From the sequence record OR999189.1: 64,000 nt of DNA; one strand, written 5' to 3'. Under the pieces are notes generated by a model. The model searched no databases, was not told the origin of the DNA, and was given only the letters and a program-made list of their open reading frames with translations. Below, piece after piece: positions 4,364 to 12,659 of the stretch. The stretch comes from Enterobacteria phage P922. Both the position numbers and the translations under genes were made by a program. Within the stretch, counting starts at the first letter, position 1; each line of letters opens with the position of its first letter.

Positions 4364-4450
4364 GCGAGAATGGTCAAATTGGTAAAGGCACAGCACTTAA
4401 AATGCTGCGGAATGATTTCCTTGTGGGTTCGAGTCCCACTTCTCGCACCA
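4364..4450 (+). tRNA. tRNA-Leu (anticodon UAA), long variable arm, CCA encoded
   Basis: Acceptor GCGAGAA/TTCTCGC, loop CTTAAAA, T-arm GGTTCGAGTCC. Confidence 0.85.
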
Positions 4451-4455
4451 AATTT

Positions 4456-4529
<74 letters not shown>

Positions 4530-4539
4530 ATTTAATTTA

Positions 4540-4612
4540 CTCCGTGTAGCTAGTTTGGTAGAGCGCCTGATTTGGGATCAGGAGGTCCAAGGTTCAAATC
4601 CTTGTATGGAGA
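4540..4612 (+). tRNA. tRNA-Pro (anticodon UGG)
   Basis: Anticodon stem CCTGA/TCAGG with loop TTTGGGA; T-arm GGTTCAAATCC. Confidence 0.75.
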
Positions 4613-4614
4613 CT

Positions 4615-4704
4615 GGAGGCGTGGCAGAGTGGTTTAATGCACCGGTCTTGAAAACCGGCAGTCGCTCCGGCGACTCATAGGTTCAAATCCTATCGCCTCC
4701 GCCA
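4615..4704 (+). tRNA. tRNA-Ser (anticodon UGA), long variable arm
   Basis: Acceptor GGAGGCG/CGCCTCC, loop CTTGAAA, T-arm GGTTCAAATCC, CCA encoded. Confidence 0.85.
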
Positions 4705-4709
4705 GTTTT

Positions 4710-4785
4710 GCTGATTTAGCTCAGTAGGTAGAGCAACTCACTTGTAATGAGAAGGTCGGCGGTTCGATTCCGTTAATCAGCACCA
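4710..4785 (+). tRNA. tRNA-Thr (anticodon UGU)
   Basis: Acceptor GCTGATT/AATCAGC, loop CTTGTAA, T-arm GGTTCGATTCC. Confidence 0.85.
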
Positions 4786-4786
4786 A

Positions 4787-4861
4787 GGCCCTGTAGCTGG
4801 AAGGTTCAAGCAAGCGACTCATAATCGCCAGATGGTGGTTCAATTCCACCCAGGGCCACCA
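4787..4861 (+). tRNA. tRNA-Ile (CAU anticodon, probably lysidine-type) or Met
   Basis: Acceptor GGCCCTG/CAGGGCC, loop CTCATAA, T-arm GGTTCAATTCC. Confidence 0.75.
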
Positions 4862-4870
4862 AATTAATTT

Positions 4871-4957
4871 GGGGAGTTATCCCGTAGAGGTAGCGGTGTG
4901 GACTGTAAATCCATTGTCATTGCGACTCGGGTGGTTCGACTCCATCACTCCCCACCA
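4871..4957 (+). tRNA. tRNA-Tyr (anticodon GUA), long variable arm
   Basis: Acceptor GGGGAGT/ACTCCCC, loop CTGTAAA, T-arm GGTTCGACTCC; not among the eight T4 tRNAs I recall. Confidence 0.75.
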
Positions 4958-4961
4958 ATTT

Positions 4962-7029: not shown

Positions 7030-7560
7030 ATGTCTCTTTATACCGAACTGAATGAAACTTCCGAAAAATCTTTTGATGGTATTTTATCAATAATGCAAAA
7101 GCAGATATTAGAACAGCTTAGTGAAGCCGCAAGCAACGGACATAAGGCTTGTCGAATCCCAAGCCCACATCGTCGCCTGTATGAACGCCCTCTTATTAAT
7201 TGGCTAGAAAGTGAAGGTCTTACGGTTAAGATTTGTCCTGCCAAATTTGATGTCCCACGCATTCTTAATATTTACTGGGATAAACCGGTTGAGAAACCGA
7301 TTGAGAAAAGTGACCCTTGGGTTGTTAATGTAAAAACATATGATAATGGATGCTCACTTGAGGTGTCTGCTGTAATTAAAGGCACTCACGGTGAAAAATC
7401 GTGGGGTTGGCCTGGTAAAGATAAAGAAATCGTGTTAAGTGTAAAAGCTACTAGTATTAGTACTCCTATAGCTAAAAGCATTATTAATGCTGCTATCGAT
7501 GAAGCTGAACGAATTTGTAAAATTAAAAATAGTTTACATCTCTCAAATAATGGGATATAA
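7030..7560 (+). CDS. hypothetical protein
   Basis: 176 aa ORF, SD GAGGAAACTGTTATG. Confidence 0.5.
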   Translation: MSLYTELNETSEKSFDGILSIMQKQILEQLSEAASNGHKACRIPSPHRRLYERPLINWLESEGLTVKICPAKFDVPRILNIYWDKPVEKPIEKSDPWVVNVKTYDNGCSLEVSAVIKGTHGEKSWGWPGKDKEIVLSVKATSISTPIAKSIINAAIDEAERICKIKNSLHLSNNGI

Positions 7561-7603
7561 TTCTTCCACAGATTTTAAATCTCAATTAACCTAAGGAAAT
7601 ACT

Positions 7604-8197
7604 ATGAACACACTGAAGAAAATTGTTGAGTTTATTCGCACTAAACTTGGTTCTGCTATGGCTAAAAATCTATCTGTTGAAGAACAGTATACTGCTGCAG
7701 CAGCAAAATTACTTGATAAAATTAAAGACCTAAAAACTGCTTCTGTTAAATCTATTAATGAAGAAAAACGTATTCGTGAACTTGTTATCGAAAAGAATCG
7801 ACAAGCCGAATCAAAAGAGCGTGAAATTCGCAAACTTCTTTCCGAAGGTCAAGATGTAACAATGCATGCTAAGCTCGGTTTACTATATCGTCGAACAGCT
7901 GAGCAGTTGACTACTAAAGCTGATGGTTATGCTGAAATGCGAATTGAAATCGCCAAGAAAGTAGTTGAGTTAGATGATGCTCGCCAAGAACTTGCGGTTA
8001 AATTGGAATATATCCGTGAAACTCGTGCGGCAAATGCCCTTGGAATTAGTACTGCCGATGATGTAGTTGAAATTGCAGCGCTAACTAAGGTTGATATTGA
8101 AGATACTCTTGCTCGAGTTGAAACCTTTAACGGTAATATTTCCGGGGTTGAAACTACCTCTGCCGATGTTCAGGAATACATTAATTCTCTGAAATAA
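7604..8197 (+). CDS. all-helical coiled-coil protein, possibly PspA/IM30-like
   Basis: 197 aa, heptad-rich, amphipathic N-terminus; followed by GGGGC-TTCG-GCCCC hairpin. Confidence 0.45.
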
Positions 8198-8201
8198 TGA
8201 T

Positions 8202-8219
8202 AAGGGGCTTCGGCCCCTT
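8202..8219 (+). terminator. UUCG-tetraloop RNA hairpin (terminator or stabiliser)
   Basis: AAGGGGC-TTCG-GCCCCTT; no long T run. Confidence 0.45.
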
Positions 8220-8238
8220 ATACTTGGAGTAAATAGGA

Positions 8239-8853
8239 ATGAAAATGAAAATGCAAAGTGATTTCAATTCAATGTTTGAAGAGTTCCAAAGACAGGTTGA
8301 TGTTCCAGACCAATTACTAAATGCTCTTAAACGTATGGCAGAAGGACGTAATTACTATTGGGGGTCTTCATATGAAACTGATGAAAGTCTTTCTGGAAGA
8401 TTTTCTAGAGGTAAAAAGTCTTTAATACGTCCTGGAATACTCATTAACAGTATTGAATCAATTCATTCATTGACGTGTGATTTTGATGTTGAATTTACTG
8501 ATTTCATTTCTCCTGAATGGACAGTTTGTTATTTAAATGACGATTATGATTATCTTGGCGTTTATAGTTTAAGTGACGCGTGGTTTAGACGTAATTTACA
8601 AAAGTCAAATTTATTTTATATTGATACTACGGTAAAATTTCAGGGAAAGAAATATTTCTTTACTCTTATAGTTGACTCTGAAACAAAATATGAAAATAAG
8701 CGTATTCTTAATAAAAGGAATATCTTGACTATTATTGATGATCTTTTTGATAAATTCGTGGAAAATCCTAATTTTGAAAGCGATTTATTACTAGAAAAAT
8801 TTGTTAAGGAATGTAGAGAATATGTCAAAGCCATCACTATACCTTCCAAGTAA
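8239..8853 (+). CDS. hypothetical protein
   Basis: 204 aa ORF; C-terminal ...KFVKECREYVK junction motif. Confidence 0.5.
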   Translation: MKMKMQSDFNSMFEEFQRQVDVPDQLLNALKRMAEGRNYYWGSSYETDESLSGRFSRGKKSLIRPGILINSIESIHSLTCDFDVEFTDFISPEWTVCYLNDDYDYLGVYSLSDAWFRRNLQKSNLFYIDTTVKFQGKKYFFTLIVDSETKYENKRILNKRNILTIIDDLFDKFVENPNFESDLLLEKFVKECREYVKAITIPSK

Positions 8854-9214
8854 ACCTGTGAAGTATGAACTAAAGCGCCAGATAATTTCTACCGATGTAT
8901 TAATGGGTCCTGTGGTAGCTGTATCATTTGTGATTCTGCTAATTGCTGGAATGGTTATAGACGTTATGACTGATATTGAATCCGGTGTAATATTTGGAGC
9001 AACGCTAATTCTTCCATTAATAATTCCGCTTTTATTAGTACCTGTAAATTGGGTAGGATACTGGTATCAAGGAAGACATTATCGTAAACGCGTACGTGAA
9101 TGGAAAGCTCAGTGTAAAAAGATTAAAAAGGAACACCAGCTTAAACTAGATATGTATGAATTTAACGAAATTATGAAATTTGTTAAGGAATCACGATGCA
9201 AAAGCCAAAACTAA
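8822..9214 (+). CDS. membrane protein (tandem paralog 1)
   Basis: ATG 8822; hydrophobic helices; C-terminal ...MKFVKESRCK motif. Confidence 0.45.
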   Translation: MSKPSLYLPSKPVKYELKRQIISTDVLMGPVVAVSFVILLIAGMVIDVMTDIESGVIFGATLILPLIIPLLLVPVNWVGYWYQGRHYRKRVREWKAQCKKIKKEHQLKLDMYEFNEIMKFVKESRCKSQN

Positions 9215-9558
9215 ATAAAGTCAAATATTCGTTTCTCGAGGCAATGTTAATTCTTGCTGTATCAGTATTTGCAGCTCTTGCGGGTAGTCTTATTGGATTA
9301 ATGATTGACTGTTTTATTTTAAACGTCGATGGTTCAGCAATTATAACAGAGGTTTGGAGTGAACTTCGTTTTACTATAGCAATTTCATTATTTTCATTCT
9401 TTGGCACTATATTATATTTTCATTATGATAATTTTAAAATAAATTGGCAAAGAAAAAAGGATTACAAAATACAATTAAAAGAATATAATAACTACATGTC
9501 TTATATTGAAAATGAATCAATGAAAGAGTTTGTGAGTGATTGTAGGAAAATTAAATGA
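9196..9558 (+). CDS. membrane protein (tandem paralog 2)
   Basis: 120 aa, TM helices, C-terminal ...EFVSDCRKIK. Confidence 0.5.
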   Translation: MQKPKLNKVKYSFLEAMLILAVSVFAALAGSLIGLMIDCFILNVDGSAIITEVWSELRFTIAISLFSFFGTILYFHYDNFKINWQRKKDYKIQLKEYNNYMSYIENESMKEFVSDCRKIK

Positions 9559-10043
9559 TTTTAAAAACTCGCTGGTATGATTTAGATGATGGGGACGATG
9601 GCATTTCAGTTGATGGAGTTGACTGGAGTGGCTGTTCCGAAGATATGAAAAATTTGCTGATTAGGGAGTTTAGAATGGGATATCAACCAGTTAAGCCATC
9701 TACTGCAACAAATGATAAATTCGTGTGTATTCATAATGGTCGCGCTAAATTAACGAACGCTGATTGGTTCACAGATAAAATTATGATTCTGTGGTACATT
9801 ATTAGTTTTCCTGTGACATCATTTGTATTTTGCTTCTTTGGAGAAAGTCCAGTAGGCAGAACGGGAGATTGGATTATTTTAACCATACTTGTTAATATTT
9901 TTACAGCAGCAATATTATCTGGGATATGGTACACGTTCATTGAAATGCCATGGCGGCTACGCAGACAACAAAAGATTTTTGATGAAAAGAAATATACTCA
10001 AAATTTAAATAACTTTATCACTGAATGCAGGAAATTAAAATGA
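9555..10043 (+). CDS. membrane protein (tandem paralog 3)
   Basis: 162 aa, TM helices, C-terminal ...NFITECRKLK. Confidence 0.5.
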   Translation: MILKTRWYDLDDGDDGISVDGVDWSGCSEDMKNLLIREFRMGYQPVKPSTATNDKFVCIHNGRAKLTNADWFTDKIMILWYIISFPVTSFVFCFFGESPVGRTGDWIILTILVNIFTAAILSGIWYTFIEMPWRLRRQQKIFDEKKYTQNLNNFITECRKLK

Positions 10044-10480
10044 AAACATTATCAGCTGGTATTATCTTTATGACAGAAGATAAAGATTTATTTATGGGTC
10101 GGGTTACTGGTTCTCGTAAGCCTGGAATGATGGCACATCGCTGGGATATTCCAAAGGGCCGTGTAGAAAATTCTGATTTAAGCGCATTAGATGCAGCACG
10201 AAGAGAATGTTTAGAAGAGACTGGTTTTAACAATTATAATCCAGATCTTCTAGAAGACCTAGGTGTATTTAAATATTCTAGTAATAAAGACCTACAGTTA
10301 TTTTATTATACGATTCCAGTAGAGCATGAGATGTTTAGAAATTGCTATTGCGAGTCTTATTTTGAAAATAAAGATGGCGTTATGATTCCAGAGATGGATG
10401 CTTTTGCTCTTATTCCTCGTACCCAGTGGCAATATGTGATGGGCCCTTCACTTTACCGAATAATGAACAGCCTCTTTTAA
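10025..10480 (+). CDS. nudE: Nudix hydrolase NudE (e.1)
   Basis: 151 aa; Nudix box GRVENSDLSALDAARRECLEETG; adjacent to lysozyme gene. Confidence 0.8.
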   Translation: MQEIKMKTLSAGIIFMTEDKDLFMGRVTGSRKPGMMAHRWDIPKGRVENSDLSALDAARRECLEETGFNNYNPDLLEDLGVFKYSSNKDLQLFYYTIPVEHEMFRNCYCESYFENKDGVMIPEMDAFALIPRTQWQYVMGPSLYRIMNSLF

Positions 10481-11283
<803 letters not shown>

Positions 11284-11767: not shown

Positions 11768-12022
11768 ATGTATCAAGAATTTATCGCTGAAGCAGATGCC
11801 AAAGGCCCCAAATTTAAAGTTAAAGCTTTCATTGGTGATGCCGAAGATTTTGGCTCATTAAAACGTAATGGGTATTCTTTCTCAGGCGGCAATGGTAAAG
11901 AAATAAACACCTATGCAAAACGTAGTGAAATTGCTTATGTTGTAGTAAGCCCTAAAGTAGATGTTGACGATATTGGATACGATTTTAACAACTTCGGAAT
12001 TATTTCTGGCGGTAAAGCTTAA
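11768..12022 (+). CDS. hypothetical protein with degenerate CTS-like N-terminus (MYQEFIAEA)
   Basis: 84 aa; N-terminus resembles the IP leader lacking KT. Confidence 0.45.
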   Translation: MYQEFIAEADAKGPKFKVKAFIGDAEDFGSLKRNGYSFSGGNGKEINTYAKRSEIAYVVVSPKVDVDDIGYDFNNFGIISGGKA

Positions 12023-12083: not shown

Positions 12084-12659
12084 ATGAAAACGTATAAAGA
12101 ATTTATCGCTGAAGCTTCTGTGGAAAAGGCCAAAGGCATTAATAAAGATGAGTGGACTTACCGAGGAAATGGTTTTGACCCTAAAACAGCCCCTATTGAA
12201 CGATACTTAGCTACAAAAGCTTCCGACTTTAAAGCTTTCGCTTGGGAAGGACTTCGCTGGTGTACTGATCTAAATATTGAAGTTGATGGGCTTAAATTTG
12301 GCCATATTCAAGATGTTGTTGCTAGTAACTTGGACGCAGCTTTTGTTAAAGCTGACGGTGACCTTCGTCGCTGGAATTTAAAATTATTCTCTAAACAGAA
12401 AGGCCCAGTGTTTGTGCCTAAAGCTGGTAAATGGGTTATTGATAATAAATTAGCTAAGGCTGTCAACTTCGCCGGTCTTGAATTTGCCAAGCACAAATCG
12501 GCATGGAAAGGTCTTGATGCAATGGCTTTCCGTAAAGAATTCGCCGAGGTTATGACTAAAGGCGGCTTTAAGGCAGAACTAGATACCTCTAAAGGTACGT
12601 TTAAAGACGCTAATGTTCAGTATGCTTACGCCGTTGCTAATGCAGCCCGTGGTAATTAA
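12084..12659 (+). CDS. internal-protein-like with CTS leader MKTYKEFIAEA (IPIII-sized)
   Basis: 191 aa, Lys/Ala-rich, N-terminal leader; own promoter at 12026-12055. Confidence 0.55.
   Translation: MKTYKEFIAEASVEKAKGINKDEWTYRGNGFDPKTAPIERYLATKASDFKAFAWEGLRWCTDLNIEVDGLKFGHIQDVVASNLDAAFVKADGDLRRWNLKLFSKQKGPVFVPKAGKWVIDNKLAKAVNFAGLEFAKHKSAWKGLDAMAFRKEFAEVMTKGGFKAELDTSKGTFKDANVQYAYAVANAARGN

Follow-up and report, generated by a model that had tools for sequence, protein, structure and literature searches.

A common C-terminal peptide and repeated gene junctions in the e.5-e.4-e.3-e.2 string of T4-like phages

Four neighbouring genes of T4-like phages, e.5, e.4, e.3 and e.2, encode proteins that carry versions of one short peptide near their C-termini, and the codons for this peptide, taken together with the start signal of the following gene, form short direct repeats that are spaced one gene apart. 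The explanation that we consider best for the whole, at a probability of about 0.65, is a common tail maintained by selection on its peptide sequence, with junction repeats that act as crossover points and, more conjecturally, turnover of the gene array and a docking role for the tail helix. These genes were analysed in a 64,000 nucleotide stretch of Enterobacteria phage P922 DNA (sequence record OR999189.1; "the window" below) and in related loci of other T4-like phages.

The gene string between e.6 and nudE

The window is Tequatrovirus DNA, and the region of interest is 96.7% identical to Tequatrovirus genomes. Its four ORFs are T4 genes e.5, e.4, e.3 and e.2 (msp4-msp7 of GenBank L13089 are these same genes), all on the plus strand and, as a preliminary description had stated, upstream of nudE; the ORF coordinates given there are correct, and all four DNA strings that it quoted are present, each with the next start codon. 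The e.5 homologue (8239..8853, + strand) encodes a soluble protein of 204 aa (phrog_2607, precomputed PF26876), the e.4 homologue (8822..9214, +) a 130 aa protein with two predicted TM helices and a basic cytoplasmic tail (phrog_2604), the e.3 homologue (9196..9558, +) a 120 aa protein (phrog_2330), and the e.2 homologue (9555..10043, +) a 162 aa protein with a ~74-aa soluble N-terminal domain and two TM helices (phrog_2203). The matches to these four separate PHROGs are full-length (E = 1e-109, 2e-70, 1e-55 and 1e-78). A conserved e.6 homologue (7604..8197, +, 197 aa) lies directly upstream of e.5, and nudE (a Nudix hydrolase gene at 10040..10480, +, Pfam NUDIX E = 1.3e-13) abuts the last junction module (below); the T4 annotation starts nudE at the equivalent of 10025, versus 10040 here. 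The window's ORFs follow the order e.6 - e.5 - e.4 - e.3 - e.2 - nudE - e of the T4 annotation, and genes for the Nudix hydrolase and lysozyme come after e.2. The four proteins are 70-96% identical to those of T4 and its relatives (by tblastn against T4, 81% for e.3 and 70% for e.2), and order, lengths and overlaps are identical. Gene e.2 is intact in the window, while the copy in the T4 reference genome is split by two frameshifts.

The genes are tightly packed; e.5, e.4, e.3 and e.2 overlap the next start by 32, 19, 4 and 4 nt, respectively. Because no strong promoter-like site was found between e.6 and nudE (the best sites lie upstream of e.6, including a sigma70-like match TTTACA-17-TATAAT at 7533-7561, and upstream of e.7), the string e.5-e.4-e.3-e.2 appears to be co-transcribed as early genes. 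A hairpin with a UUCG loop lies between e.6 and e.5 (8200..8221, +, -15.6 kcal/mol, z = -2.8) and carries a putative stem_loop annotation in L13089; lacking a T-run on the plus strand, it is not a canonical terminator. The T4 e.2-e.6 RNAs have been classed as early and the proteins have been detected (PMC9697503, supplements 4 and 6). In public annotation the T4 e.2-e.5 products are named hypothetical proteins or predicted membrane proteins and are spread over four unrelated PHROGs, and our search of the literature found no functional study of e.2-e.5 and none that links them by a common C-terminal motif.

A Kyte-Doolittle scan predicts two TM segments in each of e.4, e.3 and e.2, in agreement with the multiple TM helices reported earlier for these three, and no TM helix in e.5 (maximum KD19 0.87). 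The three TM proteins have a common layout of a short basic N-terminus, two TM helices, a basic juxtamembrane stretch and a helical tail; e.5, which is soluble and belongs to another family, lacks this layout and has only the tail motif in common with them. In the AF2 model of e.3 (pLDDT 87.8) TM1 is helix 13-42, and a continuous helix, 58-119, covers TM2, the tail and the motif; the AF2 model of e.5, which is of low confidence (pLDDT 56), places the tail in helix 182-198. Comparison of these models with the PDB gave no significant match for e.3 (the best were ExbB/TolQ helical hairpins, E >= 0.66) and only meaningless ones for e.5 (best Foldseek E = 0.03, TM ~0.2). In Pfam and NCBIfam the four proteins and e.6 all fall below the curated cut-offs, and a likeness of e.6 to PspA was not detectable; thus no homology in the Pfam, NCBIfam and PDB fold searches ties the motif to a partner or an activity.

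The C-terminal motif and the level at which it is conserved

The strict form of the motif, F[VI]xxCR[KE], has three matches in a six-frame translation of the 64 kb, all near the C-termini of e.5, e.3 and e.2. In e.5 it reads L-E-K-F-V-K-E-C-R-E (8791..8820, +; core FVKECR at 8800-8817) and is set back from the stop by 10 residues instead of being strictly terminal; in e.3 it reads F-V-S-D-C-R (9529..9546, +), followed by K-I-K and the stop, and in e.2 F-I-T-E-C-R (10014..10031, +), followed by K-L-K and the stop. The e.4 tail is a variant, F-V-K-E-S-R-C (9179..9199, +), with Ser at the Cys position and Cys two residues later. The F(V/I)xxCR(K/E) ending that had been ascribed to all four genes therefore holds for e.5, e.3 and e.2, with the displacement in e.5 just mentioned, and does not hold for e.4. 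The DNA pattern TTTRTBANKGAWTGYAGR has three matches, where 0.14 would be expected and none of 100 shuffled sequences had as many, although the pattern was drawn from those same three sites and the test is partly circular. In the remainder of the T4 genome (L029, L030, L031 and L001) [FW][IV]..C[RK] occurs in real ORFs only in e.5, e.3 and e.2, where T4 13.5-63 kb was covered through the homologous window and not through the T4 sequence itself.

The DNA here is AT-rich and of low complexity (34.7% GC) and has many short repeats (31 direct families), so a chance resemblance of AT-rich gene ends might be suspected. That idea is refuted and has practically no probability left: the three strict peptide matches are at the same position in neighbouring genes and nowhere else in the 64 kb, the DNA matches are far in excess of expectation (above), and the motif is kept at the same gene ends even in phages whose e.6 is only 60-65% identical.

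We fetched related loci with e.6 as the anchor and collected 76 unique motif instances from 21 loci of Tequatro-, Mosig-, Gapriver- and Dhakavirus and of phages that resemble Enterobacter CIP9, Klebsiella Marfa, Pectobacterium PM2 and Klebsiella KPV15. In its extended form, hydrophobic-x-x-[F/W]-[I/V/L]-x-x-Cys-[R/K], the motif is present in 3-6 genes per genome across the 21 loci and at least eight T4-like lineages, with 1-3 more motif genes beyond e.2-e.5 in the other genera; its consensus is [L/I/M]-x-x-[F/W]-[I/V/L]-x-x-C-[R/K], usually with basic residues next. Only F188, C192 and R193, together with M1 and N100, are invariant in the e.5 family across genera. Elsewhere among the genera, the genes at the e.4 position encode I, V or M in place of Cys, and since e.4-position genes do without it the role of the Cys is not universal. 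The bodies that carry the motif are of three kinds, namely the soluble e.5 family, 2-TM hairpins of several subfamilies (e.4, e.3, e.2 and RB69 ORF133c-like) and, in phages of other genera, small (~100 aa) soluble proteins for which no relationship with e.5 or with the TM bodies could be detected. A variable membrane-protein family, as had been proposed, fits the 3-6 motif genes per genome but does not fit the soluble e.5. Word-indexed protein searches returned close relatives only, and an exhaustive profile search with alignment A5 against 1.84 billion proteins found only nine representative clusters, all from T-even-type phages.

Positions 0 and +1 of the motif are always hydrophobic (100% of instances), position +4 is so in 93% and position -3 in 83%, and this -3, 0, +1, +4 spacing is the pattern expected of an amphipathic alpha-helix. 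The positive-inside rule predicts that the motif is cytoplasmic, and we infer that it may be a cytoplasmic amphipathic docking helix.

Is it the peptide or the nucleic acid that is selected? The peptide would be a mere by-product of translation if the gene junctions held an RNA element for translational coupling or regulation, a site for processing or one dedicated to recombination, and indeed all motif instances overlap the translation-initiation region of the next gene, SD-like runs lie inside motif codons (AAG GAA, GAG GAA and AGG AAA), and junctions 1 and 2 (below) have 16 identical nucleotides in common. We nevertheless consider such a signal improbable, as codon usage largely refutes it. 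The invariant residues are freely recoded: Cys is encoded by 31 TGT and 29 TGC codons (~1:1), Arg by all six of its codons from two codon families (AGA 29, CGT 19, AGG 12, CGA 6, CGC 6 and CGG 1), and Phe by TTT 59 times and TTC 11 times, with Trp (TGG) instead in 6 cases. Since synonymous codons vary so freely, this comparison shows that selection acts on the motif peptide and not on DNA or RNA, and for the same reason the junction as such does not qualify as a conserved DNA element. Furthermore, the distance from motif to ATG ranges from -7 to +61 nt, Rfam gave 0 matches at E <= 1 in 7500-10700, the junction RNAs fold no better than their shuffled versions (z = +0.65, +0.37, -1.97 and +0.30), and an SD sequence does not need the F and C codons.

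Junction repeats and the loss of single genes

All four junction modules end in the ATG of the next gene. Module 1, AAATTTGTTAAGGAATGTAGAGAATATG (8797..8824, +), contains motif codons, AAGGA and the e.4 ATG, and module 2, AAATTTGTTAAGGAATCACGATG (9176..9198, +), has a 16-nt exact repeat in common with it; modules 3, GAGTTTGTGAGTGATTGTAGGAAAATTAAATG (9526..9557, +), and 4, AACTTTATCACTGAATGCAGGAAATTAAAATG (10011..10042, +), both contain an SD-like AGGAAA, and in them the e.2 start and e.3 stop, and the nudE start and e.2 stop, respectively, overlap as ATGA. The 16 nt of junctions 1 and 2, AAATTTGTTAAGGAAT, are the only long exact DNA repeat and are accompanied by 14/18 matches at the next gene start, and an ungapped count over 30 nt gives 77% identity between junctions 3 and 4. 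The repeated junction module that had been noted earlier is thus real and non-random, but its long exact repeat is confined to junctions 1 and 2 and the similarity is mainly that of the encoded peptide; the DNA similarity is in large part a by-product of C-terminal peptide, SD-like sequence and ATG. Gene conversion between junctions 1 and 2 was considered and is not compelling, as the 16-nt identity encodes the same five residues and the SD-like run constrains two of the codons (p ~0.04-0.1, a rough estimate with assumed T4 codon frequencies).

Each next-gene ATG at the window's junctions is preceded, at a distance of 5-12 nt, by AAGGA or AGGAAA, and in 56 of the 76 motif instances the next ATG falls between -7 and +10 nt relative to the end of the motif (24 of the 76 have the ATGA overlap). 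The predicted layout, in the relatives as well, is a translationally coupled one in which a stop overlaps or abuts the next start and the SD-like run is in the upstream coding sequence. Because the motif lies 0-15 residues from the stop and stops overlap or abut the next starts, motif codons, an SD-like purine run (AAGGA, GAGGA or AGGAAA) and an ATG are seen to make up a direct repeat at one-gene spacing.

T4 recombines at microhomologies of 6-10 bp, and direct repeats lead to tandem amplification or deletion of its accessory genes (PMC9391042). Two whole-gene losses among the related loci have their crossover inside a junction module. Yersinia phage PST, RB33 and L008 lack exactly e.2, a unit of 486 nt from ATG to ATG; the e.3 tail of L008 is a hybrid of junction 3 on its left and junction 4 on its right and adjoins nudE directly. 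A 100-nt probe over this L008 junction matches in one piece in PST, RB33, BCH953P2 and Pu-Krd-SF2, and in two pieces spanning 584-585 nt in phages that have e.2. Likewise, e.4 is precisely absent from Dhakavirus, with the crossover inside AARGRGGTTCRWAATG, and the Dhakavirus e.5-e.3 junction consists of the left half of the Gaprivervirus e5-e4 junction and the right half of its e4-e3 junction. In these natural phages, as the hybrids show, crossovers in the junction repeats removed exactly one gene.

The rearrangements that break in a junction module are two of the five seen. The others break elsewhere and include an e.4::e.2 fusion within TM1 (P0091) and an internal deletion in e.4 (P0095), and an e.3 loss in L012 that was at one point a candidate for a third junction-mediated deletion is actually an internal deletion of ~240 nt. 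No junction-mediated duplication was seen in the related loci compared; only losses were caught at junctions. The preliminary description had proposed serial duplication by recombination at a short junction sequence; crossing over at the junctions is borne out by the e.2 and e.4 losses and not by the other rearrangements, and duplication of these four genes is not demonstrated, since the events are losses and the similarity of the proteins depends on the motif (below).

In the explanation that we favour, the 6-10-bp microhomology recombination of T4 would act on the junction repeats, so that the gene array could expand, contract and generate chimeras, and no product would lose its tail. Selection on the peptide and on the SD-like sequence would regenerate microhomology at each gene boundary, and because of this the same in-frame gene-unit event could recur.

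Ancestry and possible role of the tail

Could the genes simply be tandem paralogs of ancient origin? A single small gene for a 2-TM protein whose C-terminus is functionally constrained might have been duplicated several times long ago, in which case the junction DNA would be the peptide's shadow with no special recombination role, and the e.5 tail would belong to a fifth, heavily diverged or domain-swapped copy. With full sequences hhalign gives colinear alignments of e.2 with e.3 (95% over 81 columns) and of e.3 with e.4 (90% over 87 columns), pairwise BLASTP among e.2, e.3 and e.4 gives E = 1e-4 and 3e-3, and the three have in common the order N-in, TM1, short loop, TM2, basic stretch and tail. 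Tandem paralogs are clear in PM2 (15796/16181, E = 4e-10 over 90 aa; 11371/11702, E = 9e-8) and in Marfa (15715/16122, E = 8e-7), the synonymous variation of the motif is what constraint at the peptide level would give, and several rearrangements break away from the junctions. However, the hhalign values drop to 0.5% for e.2-e.3 and 13.9% for e.3-e.4 once the motif is trimmed off, and because they are then at most 14%, homology of e.2, e.3 and e.4 beyond the motif does not appear demonstrable in the window; the carriers may conceivably have acquired their tails independently. The motif is also found on the unrelated soluble proteins (above), and two independent whole-gene losses cross over exactly inside the junction module. 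We therefore think simple paralogy unlikely, although it has more in its favour than the other alternatives to the common, peptide-selected tail.

The capsid-targeting sequence (CTS) of T4 is the N-terminal M-K-T-Y-x-E-F-I-x-E, which is cleaved after Glu, and the prohead protease gp21 follows the cleavage rule I/L-x-E. A tail with F-I-x-E before Cys resembles both, Glu precedes Cys in 40/76 instances (for example RFIAECRE in Dhakavirus e.5), and internal protein (IP) genes nearby in the window start with MKTYKEFIAE and MYQEFIAEA, so the tails could be imagined to be gp21 sites that are clipped or CTS mimics that are directed to the prohead. But the residue before Cys is Y, G, D, Q, N, S, H or K in the other 36/76 and whole genera have no Glu there, the motif is C-terminal rather than N-terminal, its carriers are mostly integral membrane proteins made early, and its invariants are F, C and R rather than I-x-E; on this pattern of residue conservation the idea was rejected as very improbable.

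The T-even IPs are, all the same, the best analogy for a common address tag on variable cargo, and they come from the same genome neighbourhood (CTS-bearing genes at 10987-11283, 11768-12022 and 12084-12659 in the window): IPI, IPII, IPIII and their variable relatives are dissimilar small proteins united only by a ~10-residue terminal peptide. Their CTS is N-terminal and targets virion proteins to the scaffold before gp21 cleaves it, whereas the motif with its invariant F, C and R is at the C-terminus of mostly inner-membrane proteins. Tentatively, and with rather less than even odds, the tail may be a docking helix that bundles its carriers together, bringing soluble e.5 to the inner membrane, or that binds one cytoplasmic partner. 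A more speculative and somewhat less likely extension is that the [L/I/M]xxF[I/V]xxCR helix is an address tag for varied cargo, equivalent at the C-terminus to the CTS of the IPs, and also makes each gene a self-contained in-frame recombination cassette; the tag would direct its cargo, which comprises the 2-TM proteins as well as soluble e.5 and the ~100-aa proteins, to a single partner or assembly on the cytoplasmic side of the inner membrane, and, being fused to the next start signal, would be kept while cargo is gained, lost or swapped.

The junction modules resemble the PeSL elements (PMC2839356) in that both are short direct repeats between non-essential genes of a hyperplastic region, and when two copies recombine the gene in between is lost or exchanged. 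PeSLs are intergenic and non-coding, with a strong sigma70-like promoter and a terminator stem-loop; the junction modules, by contrast, have no intergenic space, promoter or stable hairpin, have identities of only ~8-16 nt, and code for a conserved peptide in addition to an SD-like run and an ATG. No promoter-like site coincides with any of the four junctions, and the only stable hairpin, at 8200-8221, is outside the array. The repeats in which we place the crossovers are about as long as the 6-10 bp of Srikant, Guegler and Laub (2022; PMC9391042); the microhomologies in that work were fortuitous and different in each event, whereas those at the junctions would be regenerated at each gene boundary. 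The finding is a variant of what the hyperplastic region of T4 is already known to do.

Even in T4, the best-studied phage, e.2-e.5 have been filed as four unrelated families, and one strongly conserved tail, predicted to be cytoplasmic, now links them and offers a testable handle on their function. The motif could also help to recognise members of a fast-evolving family that profile searches miss. More generally, selection on a terminal peptide in combination with tight gene packing would automatically create gene-spaced microhomologies, which T4 recombination can apparently use for clean gene loss and presumably for gain, a coding-sequence analogue of PeSL-mediated shuffling.

The e.5–e.2 cluster of P922

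Comparison with the annotated T4 genome places e.6 (7604–8197), e.5 (8239–8853), e.4 (8822–9214), e.3 (9196–9558), e.2 (9555–10043) and nudE (10040–10480) in this order on the + strand, followed by the lysozyme gene e, so that e.5–e.2 are bounded by e.6 upstream and nudE downstream. The window is Tequatrovirus DNA; over positions 8200–10500 its identity to Salmonella phage pSe_SNUABM_01 is 96.7%, and matches occur in 505 phage records. The cluster is already known and uncharacterised: an older T4 GenBank entry names the e.5–e.2 genes msp4–msp7, and the four proteins belong to four separate PHROGs of unknown function (E = 1e-55 to 1e-109). Pfam and NCBIfam searches with e.5–e.2 gave no match at cut-off, and the precomputed Pfam family PF26876 is assigned to e.5 homologues. 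In T4 the e.2–e.6 RNAs are of the early class and mass spectrometry has detected the proteins (PMC9697503, supplements 4 and 6); these are therefore genuine expressed genes. A strong promoter-like site is present at 7533–7561, 5′ of e.6, and no strong one was found from e.6 to nudE.

Several features of the neighbourhood were observed in passing. The e.6 protein (197 aa, predicted helical; 7604–8197 in the window and ~10001–10594 in the related loci L008–L027) is 60–100% identical across genera, far above every gene 3′ of it, and matched nothing in Pfam or NCBIfam. Between e.6 and e.5 lies a very stable UUCG-loop hairpin (AAGGGGC-UUCG-GCCCCUU, 8200–8221, −15.6 kcal/mol, z = −2.8). It has no T-run on the + strand; instead of terminating transcription, it may serve in RNA stabilisation or processing. 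In the annotation of the T4 reference, e.2 (4450–4961 of T4 segment L001 = NC_000866 67449–67960, minus strand) has 102 aa and a gap of 161 nt comes after it; its translation continues in frame +2 and then in frame 0 again, ending NFITECRKLK and stop. The reference copy therefore has two compensating frameshifts, or sequencing errors, whereas e.2 is intact (162 aa) in the window (9555–10043) and most relatives. The T4-annotated nudE start (MQEIKMKTL...) corresponds to an ATG at 10025 that arises from the Glu-Cys codons of the e.2 tail (GA-ATG-C); the ATG at 10040 is preceded, at 5 nt, by a better SD-like sequence (AGGAAA) and agrees with nudE N-termini in other genera.

A C-terminal motif shared across T4-like phages

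The preliminary description held that all four ORFs end in F(V/I)xxCR(K/E), that a repeated DNA module containing the next start codon lies at each of the junctions e.5|e.4, e.4|e.3, e.3|e.2 and e.2|nudE (junctions 1–4), and that this looked like serial duplication by recombination. All four junction strings are where it placed them, every one closing with the next ATG, and six-frame translation of the 64-kb window gives exactly three matches to F[VI]..CR[KE], all close to the C-termini of e.5, e.3 and e.2. The tail was thus correctly assigned to these three but not to e.4, which has FVKESRC with Ser at the Cys position, and in e.5 it lies near the C-terminus but 10 residues before the stop. 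A long exact repeat (16 nt) joins junctions 1 and 2 but no others. The last three ORFs do have TM helices (two each; e.5 has none). A degenerate DNA version of the motif has 3 matches against 0.14 expected, although this pattern was built from those same three sites and is not an independent test. Elsewhere in the T4 genome no real ORF carries the motif (T4 13.5–63 kb being represented by the homologous window). The observation is genuine and not due to chance, and its first interpretation was partly right; we found no description of this conserved C-terminal peptide motif in the literature searched.

With the conserved neighbour e.6 as anchor (protein identity 100% down to 60%), 21 loci were collected from Tequatrovirus (the window, L008–L010), Mosigvirus (L011, L012), Gaprivervirus (L013, L018, L020), Dhakavirus (L014–L017, L019), Enterobacter phage CIP9-like (L021, L022) and Klebsiella phage Marfa-like phages (L023–L025), Pectobacterium phage PM2 (L026) and Klebsiella phage KPV15 (L027). 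Every genome has 3–6 motif-ended genes between e.6 and e. A soluble protein at the e.5 position is present in each, together with two to five proteins of the 2-TM kind; a soluble ~100-aa carrier occurs in addition in CIP9-like, Marfa-like and KPV15 phages. Among 76 unique instances, position 1 is F (70) or W (6), position 2 I (49), V (19) or L (8), position 5 C (60), V (5), S (4), I (3), M (3) or A (1), and position 6 R (73) or K (3), and the residue three positions before the motif is hydrophobic in 83%. The only invariant columns of the e.5 family alignment are M1, N100, F188, C192 and R193. A profile search run exhaustively over 1.84 billion representatives returned 9 clusters only, all T-even-type; the motif family is narrow and fast-evolving.

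Possible paralogy of the carriers and recombination at their junctions

Pairwise similarity among the window's carriers is marginal (e.2/e.3, E = 1e-4; e.3/e.4, E = 3e-3). Profile–profile values fall from 95% with full sequences to 0.5% with the motif trimmed for e.2–e.3, and from 90% to 13.9% for e.3–e.4; the demonstrable sharing in the window is therefore architecture and tail only. Proteins at the e.5 position are related to one another across genera (68–70% probability even when trimmed), and the soluble ~100-aa carriers have no detectable relation to e.5 or the TM proteins. Adjacent paralogs that are clear over both TM helices occur in PM2 (15796/16181, E = 4e-10; 11371/11702, E = 9e-8) and Marfa (15715/16122, E = 8e-7), and tandem duplication is therefore at work in the motif family; no duplication mediated by a junction was seen. 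A second tandem family, of 2–5 small soluble ORFs (61–118 aa) whose C-terminus G-x-W-[V/I/Y]-S-S-S-x-x-C abuts the stop, lies between e.3 and e.2 in Mosig-, Gapriver-, Dhakavirus, CIP9-, Marfa- and PM2-type phages (L012 11700–12494; L018 11863–13129; L015 11522–12764; L021 11710–13334; L023 11567–13139; L026 12407–13450); the window and T4 have none.

Two natural polymorphisms, loss of e.2 and loss of e.4, have their crossover inside the junction module. The e.3 tail of L008 (...TTTGTGATTGATTGCAGGAAATTAAAATGAAAAC) joins junction 3 (left half) to junction 4 (right half), with nudE directly after it. A 100-nt probe over this joint matches in a single piece in Yersinia phage PST, RB33, BCH953P2 and Pu-Krd-SF2, and in two pieces spanning 584–585 nt in e.2-bearing phages, a difference of ~485 nt that agrees with the e.2 unit of 486 nt from ATG to ATG. 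Of the Tequatrovirus-type records, taken at 60% protein identity or more, ~500 match e.3 and ~450 match e.2. Gaprivervirus has ...GCTAAAGGGGTTCAAAATGcga at e5|e4 and ...ATTAAGGAGGTTCGTAATGgaa at e4|e3; Dhakavirus lacks e.4 and has ...GCTAAAGAGGTTCAAAATGgaa at e5|e3. Three other rearrangements have breakpoints outside the junctions: a ~240 nt internal deletion in L012 e.3; the metagenomic protein P0091, a natural chimera of e.4 from its N-terminus to the start of TM1 and e.2 from TM1 on, with e.3 gone (at the equivalent point of the window, TCCTGTG is common to e.4 and e.2); and P0095, also metagenomic, an e.4 copy minus its TM region. Separately, the first ~12 residues of Dhakavirus e.3 occur in two versions behind one junction module, MERPSLSSHVYQ and M(Y/H)KPSKTDPGYA (L014 11172 and L016 11100 compared with L015 11172), which suggests that this 5′ gene end was exchanged.

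The mechanistically closest systems are PeSL-mediated shuffling (PMC2839356) and the microhomology-driven amplification and deletion of T4 segments, known to proceed by recombination between 6–10-bp microhomologies (PMC9391042). Unlike PeSLs, the junction modules have no promoter, stem-loop or intergenic DNA. Among proteins, the nearest conceptual analogue is the internal-protein family with its unifying N-terminal capsid-targeting peptide, whereas the junction motif is C-terminal, has other invariant residues and is mostly on membrane proteins. Three window ORFs just downstream (10987–11283, 11768–12022 and 12084–12659) start with that capsid-targeting peptide, and are another neighbourhood family whose only common feature is a terminal peptide.

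Selection on the peptide and a possible role for the tail

Three layers make up the junction module: the codons of the motif; an SD-like purine run, formed by the two variable codons (AAG GAA, GAG GAA, AAA GGA) or by the Arg-Lys codons (AGG AAA); and the next gene's ATG. Codons in the motif vary freely for Cys (TGT 31, TGC 29), Arg (AGA 29, CGT 19, AGG 12, CGA 6, CGC 6, CGG 1) and Phe (TTT 59, TTC 11), the spacing from motif to next ATG ranges from −7 to +61 nt, the junction region has no Rfam match, and its RNA folds no better than shuffled controls; selection is therefore on the peptide. The next ATG lies −7 to +10 nt from the motif end in 56/76 instances, because the motif is C-terminal and T4 genes are compact and overlapping; an ATGA stop/start overlap is present in 24/76.

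The hydrophobic spacing of the motif (−3, 0, +1, +4) is that of an amphipathic helix. An AF2 model of e.3 is a confident (pLDDT 87.8) helical hairpin whose helix 2 continues unbroken from TM2 through the entire tail of 45 residues as far as the motif. A helix is likewise predicted for the e.5 tail, in a poor model (pLDDT 56), and fold searches gave no significant match. The motif should be cytoplasmic, since the N-termini are basic and the tails very basic. Unrelated bodies strictly conserve F, C and R, which suggests that the motif makes a specific contact with a protein and does not bind lipid. The tail could be a docking helix that bundles the carrier proteins, tethering e.5 to the membrane, or that binds one shared partner, a tentative reading to which, in either form, we give a probability of about 0.3. 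In forming the junctions between these genes, the motif has visibly shaped the gene content of the cluster.
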